Shown piece after piece: positions 1-11,274 of a DNA stretch of 64,000 nucleotides. The DNA is taken from the NCBI GenBank assembly GCA_039208735.1, contig JBCCQY010000011.1, positions 31,563-95,562 of the forward strand. The letters are read 5' to 3'. Within the stretch, counting starts at the first letter, position 1; every line of letters begins with the position of its first letter. The DNA is from Myxococcota bacterium (GTDB lineage: Bacteria > Myxococcota_A > UBA796 > GCA-2862545). The notes under the pieces were generated by a model. It did no database searches. It was given only the letters and a program-made list of their open reading frames with translations, and was not told the DNA's origin. Both the position numbers and the translations under genes were made by a program.

Positions 1-2
1 AT

Positions 3-1955
3 TACGTCCCCTCCGGTCAGCGCCAGCTCACCCTGACCCTGCCCCGTTGTGGAAACCCCAAACCCCCCCAATGGAATCCACGTCCAGTGGCCCAACCGGT
101 AGGACCGCCGCATGGGAACTCGCCGTTCGACCAGCGGCGGAGGCTGGTCAGGGCCGGCACGTTTGAGGATGTCCCCAGAACCGGGAAGGGGACGGTCGAC
201 GGGTTCGTCCAACCGATGGATCGCTCCGCCGTCTGGGGTCATCGTCGTGACCCACCAGGTCCCGTCGGGTCCCACCTCAGGCGCCTCGGCGCCCCCCACC
301 AAGGTCCGAGGGATGGCATCCCCAAGGTCCACAGGGCCCGCGGGGGCGTCGGCAGGGCCAAGGTCGTAAACCGCCAGTTCCCCTCGCCAGGCGACTTCCG
401 CCACCACGTGCCCTTCGGGGGTGAATGCCAGATGGCGGAGTTGCGGTCCGTCGAGGGACACGGGGTGCCAGCGTGGCTGGCCTTTTTGCCGGTCCCAATA
501 CATCCAACCGTAGCCGCGGCCCCGGTTCTCGAGCCAGACCAGCCCTTGGCCGTTCGGGGTCACGCGCGGATGGTCTACCTGGGGGGTCAGCCCGGGCTCG
601 GAAACGGGGGTGAGGTCGCCCGTCGCCAAGTCGACCTCCACGATTTGGGTCTCGCCCCAACGCTGGCGCACGGCGACGGCCCAGGTTCCGGAGGGGGCGG
701 GATCGGCCGACCGGACATCGGCCCTTCGGGTCACCCGGCGCTCCGTTTCCTCATCCACATTCCAAAGGTAAAGGTCGGACCGGAAACGGCCTTTGCGATC
801 GGGAACCCGAGATTCGAACAAAATCGTCGAGTCGTCCACGAAACGCGGGTTGCGCGCGACCCGGCGGCGATGAACCCGGACCCGGTCGATGGCGTGAGGA
901 ACGTACGGGGGCGGAATCGCCGCGACGTCTTCCGGATCTGCCCGGAGTTGACGTTCGATCGCAGCTTGTCGCTCGGACTCGAAGTCCTCGGGCGGCATTG
1001 CGGAAAACACCACCAGGGAAGACCGGCCATTCCGCGAAAAGACCGGCACCGCGATGCGTTCTCCATCGGGGCTCACCGAGAGATGACCCAGGCCCGCTGG
1101 ACGTTCGAAGACCCGATTTGAGCGATCGGGCCAGGGCGTTGGCCACGCTTCGGCCATGACTTCCGCGACGAACCGACCGTACGCCACTTGGGGCGACTCG
1201 CCGAAGAGGCCCGCGAATGCGGATTTGAAGCTTCGATCCTGCCTAGCAGTAAGCCGGGCCCACAGGTCCCGGAGCGCGCCCTGGTGATGCTGAGCTTCGA
1301 TCCAGTCGAGGAAGGCGGCCCCTACGAGGTACGCAAAACCTCCACCGCGATGACGGTTCGCGCCAGAAAGTTCGCCATAGACGGGAAATCGCCCCGTACG
1401 CGCGAGCAGGCGCAGCCAGACGAGCGACGCATCATCATTGGGGCGGCCGGCCCCGGTAAGTCGGCCTTCCACCACGGTGGCGTAGCCTTCGACCACCCAG
1501 CGGGGGATCTTCGTGGGGACGGGTCCCCAGCCCGTCGTGCGCTGAAGGAATCGCCGAAGACCATTTCGGGACTCCAACGTCAGGTGCACGATGTGGGTGT
1601 CTTCGTGCACGACCAGATTCTCGACCCAGTCCCGCTGATGGCCAATCACCGAGTCGGCGGGCGGCGGACTCGTGAACAGCCGCATTCTTGGTCCGCGACT
1701 GTCGGGAAGGGCTTGGCCGTTGGACGCCGCGAACGGATCCACAATGAGCACGTCCACCGGATGGTCTGGCACCACCCCGACCTCGGCGGCCACACGTTCG
1801 CGCATGGCCTCGATGCGTTCACCCACATCCGTGGCATAGGCCTTGGCCGCTCGCGGGTAGTGGATGCGGAAGTGAGGGGTTTGGAGGGTTCGCCAGCGAC
1901 CGGGAGCCACCGGTTGGGCGAGGGCACCAAGAATGACGAAAAGGGCAATGAGCAT
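3..1955 (-). CDS. Secreted zinc metallopeptidase (MA-clan/gluzincin-like) with TolB/PD40-like beta-propeller; 3' end runs off the window
   Basis: Not in the ORF track because it has no stop in the window. Manual translation from ATG 1955 gives a signal peptide (MLIALFVILGALAQ), then WRTLQTPHFRIHYP, HEDTH (HExxH) and PRWVVEGYAT (third Zn ligand), followed by propeller motifs SVSPDGERIA, DLYLWNV and HPRVTPNGQGL. Confidence 0.8.
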   Translation of the reverse strand, partial: MLIALFVILGALAQPVAPGRWRTLQTPHFRIHYPRAAKAYATDVGERIEAMRERVAAEVGVVPDHPVDVLIVDPFAASNGQALPDSRGPRMRLFTSPPPADSVIGHQRDWVENLVVHEDTHIVHLTLESRNGLRRFLQRTTGWGPVPTKIPRWVVEGYATVVEGRLTGAGRPNDDASLVWLRLLARTGRFPVYGELSGANRHRGGGFAYLVGAAFLDWIEAQHHQGALRDLWARLTARQDRSFKSAFAGLFGESPQVAYGRFVAEVMAEAWPTPWPDRSNRVFERPAGLGHLSVSPDGERIAVPVFSRNGRSSLVVFSAMPPEDFESERQAAIERQLRADPEDVAAIPPPYVPHAIDRVRVHRRRVARNPRFVDDSTILFESRVPDRKGRFRSDLYLWNVDEETERRVTRRADVRSADPAPSGTWAVAVRQRWGETQIVEVDLATGDLTPVSEPGLTPQVDHPRVTPNGQGLVWLENRGRGYGWMYWDRQKGQPRWHPVSLDGPQLRHLAFTPEGHVVAEVAWRGELAVYDLGPADAPAGPVDLGDAIPRTLVGGAEAPEVGPDGTWWVTTMTPDGGAIHRLDEPVDRPLPGSGDILKRAGPDQPPPLVERRVPMRRSYRLGHWTWIPLGGFGVSTTGQGQGELALTGGDV

Positions 1956-1979
1956 GGCCCTGGCTGTATTGCGGACGGC

Positions 1980-3344
1980 CTACGACGGCCGACGGCGCTG
2001 CACCATGAGGGCAAAGGAACGGCCCGCGAGGTCGTCGGCATCCAGGCCCGACGGGGCGAGTTCCTCGAGGCTCAACGCCCCCGCGTCCACCATGCGGAGC
2101 ACCTTGGTGAGCAGCTCCTGTCCACGCCACAGCAAGTCAGGCCGGGCTTCGGCCCCTGCGAGGCACCGCAGCAGGGTTTCGGCCATTCCGTCTGTCACCT
2201 CGGGCCAGGTGCTTCGAGCGTAGGCAAAGTAGGCGGCCCATCGAGCCGGGAGCTGCCGCGGGTCATCGTCGGTGCCCCACGAGACGCCTTGCTTCAGCAG
2301 TGCGTGGACGCGATCGGCGCCCCGGCGCCAGACCTCATGGACCTCCGCGAACCGTTCCGCCCGTTCCGCGGGGCTGACCGCTTCCGGATCGAGGTCTCGG
2401 AGGTTCGGCGACCGGCCCGCGGACAGCTGAATGGAGGTTTCCGAAACTTGGGCCCGCGCGGTGGCGAGGACCAAGTCCGCAACCGCGGTGCCGTGGGTCT
2501 GGCGAAGGCTCTCGAGGTCGACGCGAACCGACCGAAGACGGCCTCGACTTACCGATGTCGACAGCGGATAACGGGCGTTCGCGAGGACCGCGGCGGGCCG
2601 GGTGATGTGCCACTCGAGGCCCACCGTTCCAAGTGGCCAGCCCACCGAGCGCTCGAGATGGTCCAGCAATGGGGTCAAGGCTCCGATGACGCGATCGCTT
2701 AGATCGTCGACGGTCAGCTGGAGCGCGGGGAAAGGCGTCTGGTGGTGGTCGCGCCAGTCGCGGAACATCGTGACCAGCCGTTCGACGGTACGTGGGGCAT
2801 CGGTTGCCGCCAGTGAACCAAGCTCCAGCGTGATCTGGTCCGGCAGGTTGCGCTGCTCCGCGTCGATGGCGAACGCCCGGGCGATCGCGACGGCGATGTC
2901 GGGTCCTGAGGCGGCGGCCGCGGCGCTTGTGAGCTGGACGCGCAGGTCCTGGATCGACCGCGACGCGAGGCGTTCGGTGACTCGTCGGTAGACCTCATGG
3001 GCGAGTTTTGCCTCCGGCCATTGCGCTTCCGTGGCCGCATCGCGGCGCTCCAGTCCAGAGAGGATCTCGTCGACGCGCTTCGGGTCGGTGGGAAGGACTT
3101 CCCAGCCCGGCAAGCGCAAGGCGCGCCACAACTCCACACAGTCGGGCGCAAAGGTCTGCATCGCCAACATCGCGGAGCGATTTGCCCGGCTCATGAAGTC
3201 GGGCTGCAGATCGGTTCCATTGACCACAAAGGATTCGACCCACAGCGGCTTGGGGGCTGCAGGAGGGTCATGGGAGCGTGCGGTCCTCTGAGTGAGGACT
3301 TCCAGCGCCGCAGACAGAACATCCGGATCGAGACGGTTGGCCAT
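1980..3344 (-). CDS. Divergent DUF6986-like (aldolase/citrate lyase-like fold) protein
   Basis: Segments 'EVYRRVTERLASRSIQDLRV', 'PRQLPARWAAYFAY' and 'DAGALSLEEL' resemble, from memory, the DUF6986 family. Several core motifs are eroded. Confidence 0.5.
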   Translation of the reverse strand: MANRLDPDVLSAALEVLTQRTARSHDPPAAPKPLWVESFVVNGTDLQPDFMSRANRSAMLAMQTFAPDCVELWRALRLPGWEVLPTDPKRVDEILSGLERRDAATEAQWPEAKLAHEVYRRVTERLASRSIQDLRVQLTSAAAAASGPDIAVAIARAFAIDAEQRNLPDQITLELGSLAATDAPRTVERLVTMFRDWRDHHQTPFPALQLTVDDLSDRVIGALTPLLDHLERSVGWPLGTVGLEWHITRPAAVLANARYPLSTSVSRGRLRSVRVDLESLRQTHGTAVADLVLATARAQVSETSIQLSAGRSPNLRDLDPEAVSPAERAERFAEVHEVWRRGADRVHALLKQGVSWGTDDDPRQLPARWAAYFAYARSTWPEVTDGMAETLLRCLAGAEARPDLLWRGQELLTKVLRMVDAGALSLEELAPSGLDADDLAGRSFALMVQRRRPS

Positions 3345-3391
3345 GCCGAAGAATCCCGACCGCGCAGCGCGGTGTCAAGCTACGTGCGGGC

Positions 3392-4636
3392 ATGCACACA
3401 CTGGCTCACGATACGGCGCTGGTCCTGGTGATGGTGGGGTTACCGGCTCGCGGCAAGACCTTCATGGCGCGAAAGATTGCGCGGTACCTCAATTGGCTCG
3501 GCGTGACGTCGCGAGTGTTCAATGTTGGCAATTATCGCCGACATTACTTGGGCTCGGCCCAGCCCGCGACGTTCTTCGACCCTAAGAATCCAGAAGGATT
3601 CGACAAACGCCGGCAAATGGCGATGGCAGCCCTCGACGATCTCCTCACCTGGCTCAAAGACCAGGCGGGTCGTGCGGTGGCGATCTACGACGCGACCAAC
3701 GTGACCCGACAACGCCGCCAGTGGCTTCGCCAGCAGCTGGCCAACCATGGCATTGAACCTGTTTTTGTGGAGTCGATGAGTTCTGACCGAGGGCTCATTG
3801 AACACAACATTCGGCAAACCAAGTTGTCGATGCCGGACTATGCCAACGTCGAGCCCGAGGAGGCGGTGCGCGACTTTCGTGAGCGTATTGCCCACTACCA
3901 AAGTGCGTATGAGCCGGTCGACGTCGACGAGGGACCGCATGTCAAGGTCATCGACGTGGGCGAGCGCGTGAACCTGCATCGCATTCACGGCAGCTTGCTC
4001 TCCCGGATCGTGTTTTTCCTGATGAACCTGCACATCGTTCCTCGACCGGTGTTTCTCACCCGGCATGGAGAGTCCGATTTCAACGTGCAGGGTCGACTTG
4101 GCGGTGACCCTGATCTGACGGCGCGAGGTCGTTCGTTTGCGCGCGACCTGGCCCAGTTTTTTACGCAGCGACTCGCCGAACCCCCCATCGTGTTCACGAG
4201 TACGTTGAAGCGGGCACGGCAGACCGCAGAGGCGCTGCCGTTCGAGGTCAACTCCATCAAGAACCTCGATGAGATCGATGCGGGGGTCTGCGATGGGTGG
4301 ACCTACGCCGACATGATGGAACGTTTGCCTGAAGAATATGCCTCGCGCCAGGCCGATAAGCTCCGCTATCGGTATCCTCGGGGCGAGTCCTACGAAGATG
4401 TCATCCAACGGCTCGATCCGGTCATCATCGAGGTTGAACGGCAGCGTTCACCGGTCATCATTGTGGCTCACCAGGCGGTGATTCGGTGTCTGTACGGCTA
4501 CCTGACCGACCAAGCGCTCGAAACGTCGCCGCACCTCGCCGTGCCGCTGCACACGGTGACCGAACTTGTGCCCCGTGCTTACGGGGCTGGAGAGAGCCGG
4601 ACAAGCTTCATTGTACCGGACAGACCGTTGGGTTGA
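3392..4636 (+). CDS. Bifunctional 6-phosphofructo-2-kinase/fructose-2,6-bisphosphatase (eukaryote-type)
   Basis: Kinase domain: MVGLPARGKT P-loop, FNVGNYRR, YDATN, MPDY and DFRERI. Histidine phosphatase domain: RHGES, LDEIDAG, DKLRYRYPRGESYEDV and HQAVIRC. Confidence 0.93.
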   Translation: MHTLAHDTALVLVMVGLPARGKTFMARKIARYLNWLGVTSRVFNVGNYRRHYLGSAQPATFFDPKNPEGFDKRRQMAMAALDDLLTWLKDQAGRAVAIYDATNVTRQRRQWLRQQLANHGIEPVFVESMSSDRGLIEHNIRQTKLSMPDYANVEPEEAVRDFRERIAHYQSAYEPVDVDEGPHVKVIDVGERVNLHRIHGSLLSRIVFFLMNLHIVPRPVFLTRHGESDFNVQGRLGGDPDLTARGRSFARDLAQFFTQRLAEPPIVFTSTLKRARQTAEALPFEVNSIKNLDEIDAGVCDGWTYADMMERLPEEYASRQADKLRYRYPRGESYEDVIQRLDPVIIEVERQRSPVIIVAHQAVIRCLYGYLTDQALETSPHLAVPLHTVTELVPRAYGAGESRTSFIVPDRPLG

Positions 4637-5322: not shown

Positions 5323-6147
5323 TTACACGAAGAAGTCAGGCGTCAAGGGAGTGCCTGGCGATACCGCGTACTTGTCCAAGTCGGTTTCGCCCGCCTTGAG
5401 GAGCACCTCTTCGTCGATGAAGAAGTTGCCGGTGACGGCAACGTCTTGGGTGAGGATCCAGTGGGCGGCATCGGCCATGCATTCGGGGGTTCGGCTGCTG
5501 TTCATCAGTGCGTCCCCACCCAGCATGTTGACCGCCGCGGTGGCGATGGTCGTCTTGGGCCAAAGGGCATTCACCGCAATCTTATTGCGGAATTCGCCAG
5601 CCATGCCGAGTACGCACATGCTCATGCCGAACTTGCTCATGGTGTAGGCCACATGGGGGGCAAACCAGCGCTCCTCCATGTTCAACGGCGGCGAGAGATT
5701 CAGGATCTTCGCGTGGTCGGATTTCAGAAGGTGGGGCAAACAGGCCTGCGACGTGGCGAAGGTACCTCGGACATTGACCCCAAACATAAGGTCAAACCGC
5801 TTCATTGCCGTGTCAGCCGTGCTGGTGAGCTGAATCGCGGACGCATTGTTGACGCAGATGTCCAGTCCGCCGAAGCGGTCAACGGCCTCTTGGACGGCTT
5901 GCGCGATGCGATCGGGGTCGCGCACATCCACCACCAAAGGCAACGCCTGCCCGCCAGCCGCTTCGATGGCCTCGGCGGCGGTGTAGATGGTGCCTTCCAA
6001 CTTGGGGTGAGGCGTGGCTGTCTTTGCGGCGATCACGACGTTTGCACCGTCCTTTGCGGCTCGCACAGCGATCGCCTTGCCGATCCCACGGCTCGCCCCG
6101 GTGATGAACAAGGTCTTCCCCTTGAGGCTCGTGACTTCTCCGCTCAC
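5323..6147 (-). CDS. Short-chain dehydrogenase, HSDL2-like
   Basis: TGASRGIG, AAKTATPHPKLEGTIYTAA, NNAS, YTMSK and VNALWP motifs. Likely GTG start at 6147. Confidence 0.9.
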   Translation of the reverse strand: MSGEVTSLKGKTLFITGASRGIGKAIAVRAAKDGANVVIAAKTATPHPKLEGTIYTAAEAIEAAGGQALPLVVDVRDPDRIAQAVQEAVDRFGGLDICVNNASAIQLTSTADTAMKRFDLMFGVNVRGTFATSQACLPHLLKSDHAKILNLSPPLNMEERWFAPHVAYTMSKFGMSMCVLGMAGEFRNKIAVNALWPKTTIATAAVNMLGGDALMNSSRTPECMADAAHWILTQDVAVTGNFFIDEEVLLKAGETDLDKYAVSPGTPLTPDFFV

Positions 6148-6241
6148 TGGCGCTCCCGTGTGATGCTGGACTCCGAAGCGTACCCCGTCGACGGGGTTAG
6201 AGGGCCGGATGCCGAGCATCGGCTCGGGCCACGGAGCGAAA

Positions 6242-7897
6242 ATGGCGAGTCAAACCCGCGTCCAACACATCCAATCCTTCCATCGGCACCCCGATTCGTA
6301 CAAGCATTGGTCGCTCGAGGTCGACGGCGCCACCGCCACATTGGCCCTCGACGTGAAGGAAGATCAGGGCTTGCGTCCTGACGACTACGTTCTCAAGCAG
6401 AACAGCTACGACCTCGGGGTCGACATGGAGCTGGCCGATGCCATCGAACGGCTTCGGTTCGAGCACCCCCAGGTGCGCACGGTCATCATCACGTCCTCAC
6501 AGCCCAAGGTCTTTTGCGCCGGCGCGAACATTCGCATGCTCGCCACGTCGACCCATGGGTTCAAGGTCAACTTCTGCCGCTACACCAACGAAACGCGATG
6601 CGGCCTCGAAGATGCCTCTGCGAATTCCGGATTGCGGAGCATTGCAGCCCTCAACGGAACGGCTGCAGGGGGCGGCTACGAGTTGGCACTGGCCTGCGAC
6701 GAGATCTTCCTCATCGATGACGGCTCCTCCGCCGTGAGCCTGCCCGAAGTGCCCCTGCTGGGCGTTCTTCCCGGCACCGGCGGACTGACCCGCCTCGTTG
6801 ACAAGCGCCGCGTGCGCCGTGACGTGGCCGATCTCTTCTGCACCAAGGCGGAAGGGTTCCGGGCTCGAGATGCCGTGCGGTTCCAGCTCGTCGATGGTGC
6901 GTTCCCCCGCTCCAAGTGGGAAGATGGCATCGCAGGCGAGGCGGCGAAGACCCAAGGATCCGACGACACGATCAAGGGCATTCAACTCACCGAAGTGAAG
7001 AGCGAAGTCTCGGAAGACGGCCACACGCGTACCTATGGGTCCGTGTCATTGACCCTCGACGAGACCCTGCGCACGGCAACCATCACGGTGCGTGCTCCGG
7101 AAGGGCCGGCTCCTTCGATCGAGGACCTGCACGCCCAGGGCGATCAGGCCTGGGTCTTCCGCGCCTACCGCGAACTCGACGACGTGCTGCTGCGGCTGCG
7201 GTTCAACCACGACACCGTAGGCACCATCCTGTTGCGGACCGAAGGTGATGCTGACGCCGTCGTGGCCCATGACGCCACCGTGCTTGACCACCCAGACGAT
7301 TGGTTGGCCCGTGAAATCCGGCTCTTCCAGGCTCGTGTCTTCCGCCGCCTCGACAACACGGCCCGTTCGATGTTCGCCCTTATCGACGAGGGAAGTTGCT
7401 TTGCGGGGTCGCTGTTCGAAATCACGCTGGCGGCTGACCGTTCTTACATGCTCGATGATGAAGACGGAGCCGTGACCATTCGCGTGACGCAAGCGTCTGC
7501 CGGCGCCTACCCGATGTCGACTGGTCTTACGCGATTGCAGGCCCGGTACCAAAACGATGAGGCGTTGGTGAACCGGGCTCTCACGACGGACGGCCCGCTC
7601 GACGCACAGACCGCTCTCGATTTGGGGCTGGTCACGTTGGCGCCTGACGACATTGACTGGGAAGACGAGATCCGCATCGCGGTGGAGGAGCGCGTCAGCC
7701 TTTCGCCCGATGCGTTGACGGGGATGGAGCAGAACTTGCGTTTCGTGGGTCGAGAGACCTGCGACTCGAAGATCTTCGGCCGGCTGTCCGCATGGCAGAA
7801 TTGGATCTTCCAGCGCCCCAACGCGGTTGGTGACGAAGGAGCGCTTACGTTGTACGGCCATCCGACGCGGCCGTCCTTCGACTGGCGACGGACCTGA
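6242..7897 (+). CDS. boxC: 2,3-epoxybenzoyl-CoA dihydrolase
   Basis: Tandem crotonase domains with NSYDLGVDMELADA, KVNFCRYTNETR, LPEVPLLGVLPGTGG and IFGRLSAWQNWIFQRPNAVG. It lies immediately upstream of boxB. Confidence 0.93.
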   Translation: MASQTRVQHIQSFHRHPDSYKHWSLEVDGATATLALDVKEDQGLRPDDYVLKQNSYDLGVDMELADAIERLRFEHPQVRTVIITSSQPKVFCAGANIRMLATSTHGFKVNFCRYTNETRCGLEDASANSGLRSIAALNGTAAGGGYELALACDEIFLIDDGSSAVSLPEVPLLGVLPGTGGLTRLVDKRRVRRDVADLFCTKAEGFRARDAVRFQLVDGAFPRSKWEDGIAGEAAKTQGSDDTIKGIQLTEVKSEVSEDGHTRTYGSVSLTLDETLRTATITVRAPEGPAPSIEDLHAQGDQAWVFRAYRELDDVLLRLRFNHDTVGTILLRTEGDADAVVAHDATVLDHPDDWLAREIRLFQARVFRRLDNTARSMFALIDEGSCFAGSLFEITLAADRSYMLDDEDGAVTIRVTQASAGAYPMSTGLTRLQARYQNDEALVNRALTTDGPLDAQTALDLGLVTLAPDDIDWEDEIRIAVEERVSLSPDALTGMEQNLRFVGRETCDSKIFGRLSAWQNWIFQRPNAVGDEGALTLYGHPTRPSFDWRRT

Positions 7898-7946
7898 CAG
7901 GGGCGATGTCGGTCATGTTACCCTGCCCACTTGCAGGAGACGATTC

Positions 7947-9362
7947 ATGGCCGGCATCGACTATAATGAACGGATTCCGAACAACGTTGGGCTGTCGGAC
8001 AACCGGCGTCTACAGCGGGCACTCGAGAAGTGGCAACCGGCGTACCTCGACTGGTGGCGCCAAATGGGGCCCGAGGGCTGGCAGGAAAAGGACGTTTACC
8101 TGCGTACGGCGGTGAGCGTTGACAAGGGTGGTTGGGCCCATTTCGACTACGTTCAGATGCCCGACTACCGCTGGGGCATTTTCCTCGCCGACGCCGAGCC
8201 CGACCGGACGATCGGATTTGGCGACCACGCGGGACAGCCTGCGTGGCAGGAAGTGCCCGGCGAGTACCGCAACATGCTGCGCCGCATCATCGTCACCCAA
8301 GGCGACACAGAGCCTGCGAGTGTCGAGCAGCAGCGTATTCTCGGGGCCACGGCACCGTCGTTGTACGACCTGCGCAATCTGTTTCAGGTCAACGTGGAGG
8401 AAGGCCGTCACCTGTGGGCCATGGTCTACCTGTTGCACGGCTTCTTTGGCCGTGATGGCCGCGATGAGGCCGAAGAGTTGTTGGCCCGTCGCGCTGGAGA
8501 TGCGGACAAGCCCCGCATCCTCGATGCCTTCAATCAGGAATGTCCCGACTGGTTGACCTTCTTCTGTTTCACCACGTTCACCGACCGTGACGGGAAGTTC
8601 CAGCTCGGTGCCCTGGCAGAGTCCGCGTTCGACCCGCTGTCACGCACGTGCCGCTTCATGCTTACCGAAGAGGCCCATCACCTCTTTGTCGGTCAGACCG
8701 GCGTAGAGCGGGTGCTTCGGCGGGCGGTGCAGCTCGCCAAGGAAAACCCAGGGGTGTCGGTTCGTGATCAGGGCGGCATCCCACTCGAGATCGTCCAGAA
8801 GTTCGTGAACTTCTGGTTCAGCTACAGCCTCGATCTGTTTGGCTCGGAGATCTCTTCAAATGCGGCTGACTTCTTCGCGAGTGGGCTCAAGGGGCGTTGG
8901 CGCGAGAATCAGTACGAAGACCACCTCGTGACCGAGGGACACTACACGATGTCCCAGCTCGAAGGCGGCAAGCTCATCGACGTCGATGTGCCCATGCGGA
9001 ACGCGATGAACGAGGTCCTGCGGGACGAGTATGTGAAGGACTGCGAGAAGGTCCTCGAAAAGTGGAATCGCGCGCTGGTGGCCGAAGGGGAGACCGACTT
9101 CGAAATCACGCTGCCATCGGTTCGTTTCCATCGCCGACAGGGCATCTATGCAGACGCACACTTCGATACCGCGGGCAACCCCATCTCGGCCGAAGCGTTT
9201 GAAGCGAAGCGCGCGTCCTGGCTTCCCACGGACGAAGAACGGGACTACGTCCGTTCGCTGATGGCGCCCTGCTACGAGACGGGAAAGATGGCGAACTGGA
9301 TCGCGGCGCCGCGCAAGGGCATCAACGGGCAGGAACTCAGCTACGAGTACGTCCGGCTCTAA
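7947..9362 (+). CDS. boxB: Benzoyl-CoA 2,3-epoxidase diiron subunit
   Basis: IPNNV, QGDTEPASVEQQ, EEGRHLWAM, TDRDGKFQL and EEAHH (diiron ligands). RBS AGGAG before ATG 7947. Confidence 0.95.
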   Translation: MAGIDYNERIPNNVGLSDNRRLQRALEKWQPAYLDWWRQMGPEGWQEKDVYLRTAVSVDKGGWAHFDYVQMPDYRWGIFLADAEPDRTIGFGDHAGQPAWQEVPGEYRNMLRRIIVTQGDTEPASVEQQRILGATAPSLYDLRNLFQVNVEEGRHLWAMVYLLHGFFGRDGRDEAEELLARRAGDADKPRILDAFNQECPDWLTFFCFTTFTDRDGKFQLGALAESAFDPLSRTCRFMLTEEAHHLFVGQTGVERVLRRAVQLAKENPGVSVRDQGGIPLEIVQKFVNFWFSYSLDLFGSEISSNAADFFASGLKGRWRENQYEDHLVTEGHYTMSQLEGGKLIDVDVPMRNAMNEVLRDEYVKDCEKVLEKWNRALVAEGETDFEITLPSVRFHRRQGIYADAHFDTAGNPISAEAFEAKRASWLPTDEERDYVRSLMAPCYETGKMANWIAAPRKGINGQELSYEYVRL

Positions 9363-10924
9363 TCTTCGGCGAGTTCGCCACCGCTCATGGTCTCGGCGAG
9401 ATGGCCTCCGGTGGGCGGCGCGATGGCCAGGTTCCCCGCGCCGCCAGCCCGCTGCCGAATGAGTTCGGCGGCGGCCCGACACTGTTCACGGACGAGCCCG
9501 TCGCCAAACCACCCCGATGAACGCTCACGAAGCGCAGGAATCGCGCGGGGCGAACCGGCGGTGGTCAAGGCCGAAACGGCTGCCAAGCGGACGGCCCGCG
9601 TTCCTCGGTCAAGCCAATACAGCAGGGTGTCATCGACCATCGCCCCGCCTTCGCCGAGCCGTTGGATGAGCGCTACGGCATCTGGTTCGCCGTGTGGCCT
9701 CAGTTTCGCGAGCCACCAGGCGTATTCCTGGGGGATGGCGGCGATGAGGGCGGCGACGAGCGCACTGGAGTGCCGCGCGGCCTGGGCGATCGGCCGCACC
9801 CGACCCACATTCTCATGCCGTAGATCGTCGACGACGCGTCCTGCGAGGGCCAGTGCCGCGGCTCGTCGGATGCCCGAACCCGGAAGCCGAAGCCACTGCG
9901 TGAGTCGCTCATCGGACTCCGGATGCGCAAACGCGGCAAGGACCTTGGCGAGCCTTCGCGCTTCGGAGGAGGAGCGAGGGTGCAGCTGTTGGAGCAGCGA
10001 CCGGGATGAGGAGGGAGGACGATCGGGCAGCGAACGCAGTAAATCGCGTACAAAATGTGGATCTTCGACCAACCCTGGCGTCGACCAAAGACGGTCCACC
10101 ACCGCCAATCGCTCCGAATCGTGGTCGAGCTGGTTGAACAGTGAGCCGACGTATTGTGCGGCGGGGCGTGCATCGCCACTGTGCCAGGCCTCAATGACCC
10201 GCTCGCTGATTCGAGCATCGAGAGGGTCGCCGAGTTCGAACCACGTCGACAACACCACAGGGTAGGGCGGCATCGCGGCGAGCAAGGACAGCGGAGGCTC
10301 TTGGGTCCGTTCGATGAGGGCTTCGCAGGCAAGTTCGGCCTGCGATGCGGTGAGGTCGGGCAGCAATTCGAGCACCCGACGCGACAACGCAGCCTGGACC
10401 CCAGGCGCTTCATCTTCCCTCAGCCACCGCTGCAGCAAGGCCTCGATCGACGGTTCGTGGCCGAGGCTCACCGCGATGCTCACGAGCTCCTGGACCGCAG
10501 CGGTCGCCGCGTGTGGATCGGCAAACCGGACCGTCACTGCGGGCTCGAGCGTGGCCTCTTGAGCTCCGATGGTGGCCGACAGCCGACCCACGACCTCGGC
10601 CAGTGCTTGGCGTTGTCGTTGCCCAAGGCGATGGAGAACCGCACGTCCCCCCGCGAGAATGGCGACCTGGTCGTCGAAGGCATCGTCTCCCGTGCGCCAT
10701 TGGGGTGCGGTGGGCACTTTGTCCCGGGGCACGAGCAAAAACGACTCTCCGACAGGCTCTGGGCGTACCACGATCCGAACCGTCAGCGGATTGCGCCAGG
10801 CACGGTAGTGCGCTTCAAGGCGGTGGCTGGCCGCCTGGTAGGCATAGAGGAGACCGTCTTCGACGACCCCGACCGGAACGAGGCCGAGGCGTGCGAAAAC
10901 CGTGGGCCAGAGCGTGTCGGACAT
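9359..10924 (-). CDS. Hypothetical protein with C-terminal HEAT-like repeats
   Basis: Long ORF with 'RAVRLAAVSALTTAGSPRAIPAL' HEAT-like segments. Likely ATG at 10924. Confidence 0.6.
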   Translation of the reverse strand: MSDTLWPTVFARLGLVPVGVVEDGLLYAYQAASHRLEAHYRAWRNPLTVRIVVRPEPVGESFLLVPRDKVPTAPQWRTGDDAFDDQVAILAGGRAVLHRLGQRQRQALAEVVGRLSATIGAQEATLEPAVTVRFADPHAATAAVQELVSIAVSLGHEPSIEALLQRWLREDEAPGVQAALSRRVLELLPDLTASQAELACEALIERTQEPPLSLLAAMPPYPVVLSTWFELGDPLDARISERVIEAWHSGDARPAAQYVGSLFNQLDHDSERLAVVDRLWSTPGLVEDPHFVRDLLRSLPDRPPSSSRSLLQQLHPRSSSEARRLAKVLAAFAHPESDERLTQWLRLPGSGIRRAAALALAGRVVDDLRHENVGRVRPIAQAARHSSALVAALIAAIPQEYAWWLAKLRPHGEPDAVALIQRLGEGGAMVDDTLLYWLDRGTRAVRLAAVSALTTAGSPRAIPALRERSSGWFGDGLVREQCRAAAELIRQRAGGAGNLAIAPPTGGHLAETMSGGELAED

Positions 10925-11274
10925 GCGTGGAGCATAGCAGGGCAGTCGTCCAACAGGTCGCCCGCGCCAACTTCGCGCCACGAAAGAGGACGAAGTCTGG
11001 CCGCCATGGCCAGCGTTTCGCGTCTCGCAAGAAGAATTTCTCACGATCCGACAGAATGCGACCGGACGGAACGTAAGGTTCAGGTAAGACTATCTGCCGA
11101 TGTTCAAAACGAGAAAATGTCAAGTTTTCACTGAACCCGGGCATAGACTAGCGCCGTGGGGGTTCGTGTGATTGACTTGCGCACCCGTGAGCGGGCCACT
11201 ACCTGCACGGGTCTGATCGAACGACCGTGTTGGCCCGTTCGATTTCGTATCTATTCTGTGCCCTGGGAGTGATG

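Follow-up and report, generated by a model that had tools for sequence, protein, structure and literature searches.

An intact, tail-less PFK-2/FBPase-2 of the eukaryotic PFKFB family in a Myxococcota genome, with candidate fructose-2,6-bisphosphate targets

Fructose-2,6-bisphosphate (Fru-2,6-P2) is taught as a eukaryotic switch between glycolysis and gluconeogenesis. One gene in a 64,000-nucleotide stretch of a Myxococcota genome bin (G000; the stretch is hereafter the window) nevertheless reads as a complete 6-phosphofructo-2-kinase/fructose-2,6-bisphosphatase (PFK-2/FBPase-2), which raises the question of whether a bacterium carries this enzyme natively and encodes anything that could respond to its product. 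Here, we describe the domains, active-site residues, native status and phylum-wide spread of the gene, together with the presence and sequence features of two candidate targets, and then weigh what the system might do.

The gene is a single open reading frame from ATG to TGA with no internal stops and no introns, and its product (P0001) has the bifunctional PFKFB architecture, an N-terminal PF01591 kinase fused to a C-terminal PF00300 phosphatase. Pfam assigns 6PF2K at E 1.3e-74 (250.7 bits against a cut-off of 27) and His_Phos_1 at E 5e-40. A sequence-only reading of this DNA had described both catalytic domains as intact and in the eukaryotic order; indeed, all eight motifs that it quoted are found in the order it gave. 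The features of the gene, in window coordinates, are:

3392 to 4636, plus strand: bifunctional PFK-2/FBPase-2 gene (P0001), 414 aa, without N- or C-terminal regulatory tails
3404 to 4039, plus strand: 6-phosphofructo-2-kinase domain (PF01591, residues 5-216)
3437 to 3460, plus strand: Walker A / P-loop, residues 16-23 (K22 in 119/120 homologs, with a gap in the other one)
3518 to 3541, plus strand: putative fructose-6-phosphate-binding loop, residues 43-50 (N44, R49, R50; 120/120 homologs)
3689 to 3700, plus strand: Walker B-like motif, residues 100-103 (D100, T102, N103; 120/120 homologs)
4049 to 4582, plus strand: fructose-2,6-bisphosphatase domain (PF00300, residues 220-397)
4061 to 4075, plus strand: RHG motif with predicted phospho-histidine H225 (120/120 homologs)
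4271 to 4285, plus strand: motif with predicted general acid E294 (120/120 homologs)
4367 to 4393, plus strand: putative 6-phosphate pocket segment, residues 326-334, beside R319 and K323 (R319, K323 and Y334 in 120/120 homologs)
4469 to 4480, plus strand: second catalytic histidine motif, H360 (120/120 homologs)

Conservation was assessed at 32 active-site positions, picked by analogy with the mammalian enzyme, in the 120 top homologs, which are 55-100% identical to P0001 and so show conservation within the near clade. At 24 of the 32 positions the residue is invariant in all 120, three more are broken just by one sequence's gap, and these residues match the rat enzyme. Aligned to 1bif, the kinase site retains the Walker A Lys and Thr, the Mg-binding Asp and the Fru-6-P-binding Arg, Thr, Asn, Lys and Tyr, all conserved across the 120 homologs, while the phosphatase site retains H225, E294, H360, R274, R319, K323, Y305, Y334 and R365 in every one of them. 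We take the roles of the kinase-site residues, including residues 43-50 as the Fru-6-P-binding loop, of E294 as general acid and of residues 326-334, R319 and K323 as the 6-phosphate pocket to be those of the mammalian enzyme. The role of the RHG histidine in this enzyme class is stated in the accessible text of PMC9721465. From the domains and residues, P0001 is predicted to have both activities, Fru-2,6-P2 synthesis and hydrolysis.

In a PDB search with P0001, the best 12 matches were all mammalian PFKFB isozymes, and the top bacterial phosphatase reached just E 9e-15. The rat testis enzyme (1bif/3bif) aligns without a break (query 10-399 to 39-429 of 468; E 1.9e-120), leaving only about nine N-terminal and 15 C-terminal residues outside the core, so the phosphorylation tails of the animal isozymes are absent. 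The phosphatase half also matches the isolated rat FBPase-2 domain 1c7z (E 6.8e-57), and the Atlas model of P0001 superposes on PFKFB clusters with TM 0.89-0.96. Animal PFKFB1-4 (1bif/3bif, liver 1k6m, human PFKFB3 2axn/6ibz, PFKFB2 5htk) share the domains, their order and the catalytic and substrate residues with P0001 (E 1.9e-120 to 4.9e-110), but P0001 is bacterial, intronless and free of kinase-regulated tails. The terminal extensions that mark the animal and plant subfamilies (phosphorylation tails, or a carbohydrate-binding module in plants and protists) are likewise absent from P0001, whose core occupies residues 5-397 of 414; the eukaryotic homolog rows are longer, and some carry the carbohydrate-binding module. 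P0001 is predicted to work like the animal and plant PFKFB isozymes, yet falls outside those subfamilies.

Homology to PFKFB could in principle hide a different activity: the substrate might be another sugar phosphate, or one half only might be active (as a repair phosphatase, or as a kinase for a seven-carbon analogue), and no glycolytic Fru-2,6-P2 signal would arise. Broad specificity is a trait of histidine phosphatases, and many homologs carry the JGI label "broad specificity phosphatase PhoE/predicted kinase"; the uninformative neighbourhood of PFK-2 in most genomes speaks for this alternative too, as do reviews that still call the metabolite eukaryotic (PMC9721465). Against it, the residues that bind substrate in both halves are conserved to the same degree as those for catalysis and agree with the rat enzyme, and PFK-2 genes are repeatedly paired with a PFK gene (see below). 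We consider such a substrate or half-activity improbable. Synthesis of Fru-2,6-P2 by P0001 is, on our assessment, very probable.

A eukaryote-type enzyme in a metagenomic bin might instead be an artefact, whether through contaminating eukaryotic DNA, a chimeric assembly or the recent transfer of a non-functional gene. The source bin has 6.15% contamination, and among the six locus genes for which GC and GC3 were measured, PFK-2 is lowest in both. The sequence-only reading had judged its GC content to match the neighbours; the values are similar, but the gene lies slightly below all five (GC 59.8% vs 61.2-67.7%; GC3 0.715 vs 0.738-0.792). The two genes that adjoin it are, for context:

1980 to 3344, minus strand: DUF6986 gene, divergent, starting 47 bp from the PFK-2 start and syntenic in the related loci L001 and L003
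4608 to 5300, minus strand: convergent open reading frame without assigned function, overlapping PFK-2 with its 3' end

The neighbours of PFK-2 are bacterial (DUF6986, an SDR, boxC, boxB and a sigma-70 factor), and L001, from another genome, is colinear with window positions 1-4622 (68% DNA identity) and 5324-10938 (78%), about 11 kb in total. Orthologs of PFK-2, full-length or cut by contig ends, occur in 21/24 relatives of the same family (the three misses are 71-89% complete), and the nearest tree neighbours come from same-genus genomes. When the 173 contigs of at least 20 kb are ordered by closeness to the mean tetranucleotide profile of the genome, the contig with this locus (C11) comes 5th. 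Contamination and chimerism are ruled out by the orthologs, the tree neighbours, the L001 colinearity and this profile, and an artefact of any of the three kinds is vanishingly improbable against the bacterial boxC, boxB and sigma-70 flanks. The earlier claim that the gene is native is thus borne out by the 11-kb colinearity and the family orthologs, and a chimeric contig, which that reading had named as a possible refutation, was checked for and not found. Assembled contigs of run X1 also span the stretch, although X1 may be its source and is then not independent; runs X2-X4 yield pieces only. Scans for promoters and terminators at the locus each returned none, which is uninformative. We classify the gene as an intact, native, tail-less member of the eukaryotic PFKFB family.

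No sugar-metabolism or glycolytic gene or operon was found among the adjacent genes scanned at this locus. The boxC and boxB genes (window 6209-9362, plus strand), of the aerobic benzoyl-CoA epoxidase route, score above NCBIfam cut-offs and are syntenic in L001; boxA was not among the adjacent genes scanned. The L001 record is titled "uncultured Enterobacteriaceae bacterium" despite its 11-kb colinearity with the window, and the label is probably wrong.

Beyond the family, PFK-2 orthologs were found in 2/16 genomes from other families of the same order. Across the phylum, PF01591 scores above its cut-off in 82 of 401 sampled genomes (about a fifth) and in 0/14 control genomes, with 28/29 genomes positive in family f20 and 10/29 in family f14. 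Where relatives of P0001 carry names, these denote metagenome bins of Myxococcota or Deltaproteobacteria, and Myxococcota make up most of the top Atlas cluster. The sequence-only reading had allowed that annotated bacterial homologs may exist, and at NCBI the name "6-phosphofructo-2-kinase/fructose-2,6-bisphosphatase" is already attached to Myxococcota proteins; the rarity that it implied is tempered, since the gene is present in roughly one in five sampled genomes of the phylum and a Desulfovibrio exception is cited. The Desulfovibrio case of Rider et al. 2004 reportedly rested on genome sequence alone. In the accessible text of PMC9721465, which cites Rider et al. 2004, the metabolite is given as not found in bacteria except Desulfovibrio desulfuricans. 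The PFK-2/FBPase-2 homolog of that species belongs to the same enzyme family as P0001, whereas the gene described here is conserved through whole families and is accompanied by candidate receptors.

Tail-less PFK-2/FBPase-2 proteins also form another bacterial clade, the second one, which is divergent (P0380, P0431-P0460; about 31 clusters, about 400 aa), includes records named Candidatus Wolfebacteria and Deltaproteobacteria and falls outside the Myxococcota clade in the best tree. Two other tail-less homologs, P0333 and P0382, are rich in Lys, Asn and Ile, and a protist, a giant virus or a bacterium may be their source. Scans that detect close relatives only returned no relative of P0001 or P0333 in viral contigs and no relative in plasmids.

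If P0001 makes Fru-2,6-P2, the genome should be asked for proteins that might bind it. A PFK-domain search of G000 yielded a 709-aa tandem PFK-1 (P0122; G000:C22:18438-20567) with two PFK domains in one frame. It scores 783.6 on the eukaryote-type model TIGR02478 (cut-off 708.4) and aligns to human PFKP with E 7e-171. An AlphaFold model of the protein, with pLDDT 93.5, fits human PFK at TM 0.97. Like the eukaryotic tandem ATP-PFK-1 enzymes (TIGR02478 / IPR009161; human PFKP, PFKL and PFKM; yeast Pfk1/2), P0122 combines a catalytic N-terminal half, which retains the ATP-type catalytic motifs, with an effector C-terminal half that is without them. In the latter, R451, S500, N502, R536, R625, H631, Q634 and R691 align to the mammalian Fru-2,6-P2 site and are present in 48/48 close homologs; the site departs from the mammalian and other eukaryotic enzymes in having Arg545 in place of Gly and Asp599 in place of Glu. 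The residue list and numbering applied to P0122 are those of the mammalian F' (Fru-2,6-P2) site, in which the serine is taken to be important. In the available text, PMC12203962 treats the tandem arrangement as a eukaryotic trait and identifies F', in the C-terminal half, with the Fru-2,6-P2 site, and PMC10778546 describes S529/S530 as an inhibitory O-GlcNAc site. Both candidate targets, P0122 and the class I FBPase described below, lie on contigs other than that of PFK-2; same-genus orthologs of P0122 exist, which argues against mis-binning.

Bacterial tandem PFK-1s fall into two types by effector-site residue: a mammalian-type serine (48/48 in the P0122 type) or Asn/Asp (70/73 rows of the other type). 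Full-length serine-type enzymes occur in ten genomes (G000, G001, G003, G016, G017, G024, G527, G531, G318 and G519), and all ten also carry PFK-2, although they span two families where PFK-2 is already common (it is frequent in f1, the family of G000). The Asn/Asp type, which also occurs in Chloroflexota, was found in three genomes of family f59, with PFK-2 in 0/3. Altogether, the co-occurrence of PFK-2 with the serine type as opposed to the Asn/Asp type is suggestive within these three families only. In G540, the N-terminal half of a serine-type PFK-1 lies at a contig end, and PFK-2 was not found. Tandem eukaryote-type PFK-1 with Asn/Asp at the effector serine is common in Chloroflexota, Actinomycetota and f59 (P0191, P0196, P0217, P0230, P0234; L064-L066).

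Tandem PFK-1 is present in 9/49 f1 genomes and 2/141 f14 genomes, and in just 5/82 PFK-2 genomes of the phylum sample (77/82 have none, with only two candidates scored per genome). On these counts, it cannot be the general Fru-2,6-P2 target. Class I FBPase is inhibited by Fru-2,6-P2, and G000 encodes one (contig C118; PF00316 / PRK09293, 405 bits against a cut-off of 368) whose putative sugar-phosphate-site residues align with those of the human and E. coli proteins. FBPase I occurs in 74/82 PFK-2 genomes vs 136/319 without PFK-2, an association that kinship inflates, and was not detected in 8/82 PFK-2 genomes. Across the phylum it fits better than tandem PFK-1 as a general target. G000 also has a single-domain PfkA on contig C41 and one pyruvate kinase on contig C40, and no GlpX-type FBPase was found in it. 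A further PFK gene (G000:C90; L061:4637-5900) is broken in two by a frameshift some 200 codons in and may be a pseudogene or an assembly error.

The difference between these counts raises the possibility that Fru-2,6-P2 is made but in reality acts solely on class I FBPase or on some other enzyme, with the tandem PFK-1 site binding Fru-1,6-P2 or Fru-6-P and the co-occurrence reflecting shared ancestry. Besides the 74/82 and 5/82 frequencies, the catalytic-type Arg545 in the P0122 site speaks for it, as does family f14, where a reversible PPi-type PFK is found in 2/10 PFK-2-positive vs 15/19 PFK-2-negative genomes, as expected if PFK-2 serves an ATP-PFK/FBPase cycle. It is harder to reconcile with an effector serine that is invariant in the P0122 type and replaced in nearly all rows of the other, or with the lack of PFK-2 in the three phylum genomes that have the Asn/Asp type. 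We regard a target set without tandem PFK-1 as unlikely, if less so than a different substrate for P0001, and retain P0122 as a candidate receptor in G000.

A third kind of candidate comes from gene order. PFK-2 lies head-to-head with a Thermotoga-like PPi-type PFK in 6/9 PFK-2-positive genomes of family f36 and in 1/2 in family f31, making 7 of 85 genomes with loci examined, where the flanks covered 1.5-7 kb and were often ended by contig ends. Like the plant Fru-2,6-P2-activated PPi-PFK (PFP), this partner is PPi-type, but it belongs to a Thermotoga/9dqm-like short clade and not to the plant clade. PPi-type PFK was rejected as a general partner, as there is no phylum-wide association (19/82 PFK-2 genomes vs 99/319 others), and the Thermotoga-like form was not found in G000. 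The only Thermotoga-like PPi-PFK among 20 sampled f1 relatives (G010:C232:31587-32801) is in a genome that is 89% complete and has no detected PFK-2. At the phosphate-donor motif of PFK, we take Gly to mark the ATP type and Asp the PPi type. In genus g122, the PFK paired with PFK-2 (L075:2293-3534 and L104:4793-6025) carries the ATP-type Gly where its relatives from L074 and L076 carry the PPi-type Asp, suggesting that the phosphate donor changed within the pair. G035 has a pfkA gene (L072:3210-4247) at a distance of about 5 kb from PFK-2. According to the accessible text of PMC12203962, every bacterial PPi-PFK that has been characterised is non-allosteric.

In our preferred reading, which we hold to be probable, Fru-2,6-P2 acts as a switch on the cycle between Fru-6-P and Fru-1,6-P2, with tandem PFK-1 and class I FBPase as its targets. 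The kinase half of P0001 would make Fru-2,6-P2 from Fru-6-P and ATP, driven by high Fru-6-P, and the phosphatase half would remove it. The metabolite would activate the tandem PFK-1 P0122 and inhibit class I FBPase, ligand binding by both being predicted from their site residues. A fall in hexose phosphate would let the phosphatase reset the signal. Because the regulatory tails are absent, we infer that the balance between kinase and phosphatase would be set by metabolite levels and not by phosphorylation. Across the phylum, FBPase I would be the most general candidate target, tandem PFK-1 an extra reader in G000 and some relatives, and the adjacent PPi-type PFK a candidate reader in f36. The sequence-only reading had proposed that this lineage may use Fru-2,6-P2 signalling; that proposal keeps its "may" and gains plausible receptors in the same genome.

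The same reading held that the gene bears on the origin of the eukaryotic enzyme, which is not established here, as the trees are unrooted and weak in their backbone. The tree set (LG+G4) comprised 83 rows, namely 34 from the Myxococcota clade, seven from the second bacterial clade and 42 eukaryotic or unnamed, after 13 of 150 representatives were dropped for poor coverage; names were looked up for 30 of the 150, and most of the others are unnamed. The eukaryotic rows include amoebozoans, fungi, a bird, Pygsuia, Sulcionema, Spironema, Rhodelphis, Chlorokybus and Cyanidiococcus. FastTree places 83/85 genome sequences together with support 99, and in the best IQ-TREE LG+G4 tree 32/34 Myxococcota-clade rows group weakly (SH-aLRT 21), adjoining unnamed proteins with eukaryote-like N-terminal extensions, with the second bacterial clade elsewhere. 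Topology tests did not reject Myxococcota monophyly (p-AU 0.20), nor did they reject all bacteria on one side (p-AU 0.069), though the latter tree scores worse than the best one by 64 log-likelihood units.

These unrooted trees would be compatible both with a bacterial donor and with an ancient transfer out of a eukaryote into a myxobacterial ancestor. A bolder history, in which the switch arose in bacteria and Myxococcota hold the ancestral tail-less PFK-2/FBPase-2, run it as a second-messenger system with several readers (tandem PFK-1, FBPase I, PPi-PFK) and passed the system to a stem eukaryote, is conceivable but doubtful. A single myxobacterial donor of the whole circuit is weighed against by the Chloroflexota tandem PFK-1 P0191, which is closer to mammalian PFK than P0122 is (793-817 vs 556-574 bits). 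Myxococcota recur among the sister groups of eukaryotic central-metabolism genes in the accessible part of PMC11976288; that study analysed PFK-1, and in its searchable supplements PFKFB appears just as a homologous KO (K19028, 13.6% bacterial members).

A literature search, with most subscription papers outside it, found no phylum-wide or functional study of bacterial PFK-2, and PMC11793985 and PMC12965863, in their accessible text, mention PFK-2 in a eukaryotic setting only. What appears to be new is not a first bacterial homolog but a widespread, native bacterial variant of a known eukaryotic enzyme, accompanied by credible candidate receptors. P0001 represents a naturally minimal PFKFB core without regulatory tails, and the Myxococcota homologs supply prokaryotic sequences for asking where the eukaryotic system arose. 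A conserved and intact writer-eraser, present in roughly one in five sampled genomes of the phylum and accompanied in G000 by a candidate reader of eukaryotic type, leads to the prediction that Fru-2,6-P2 is an unrecognised signalling metabolite in bacteria.
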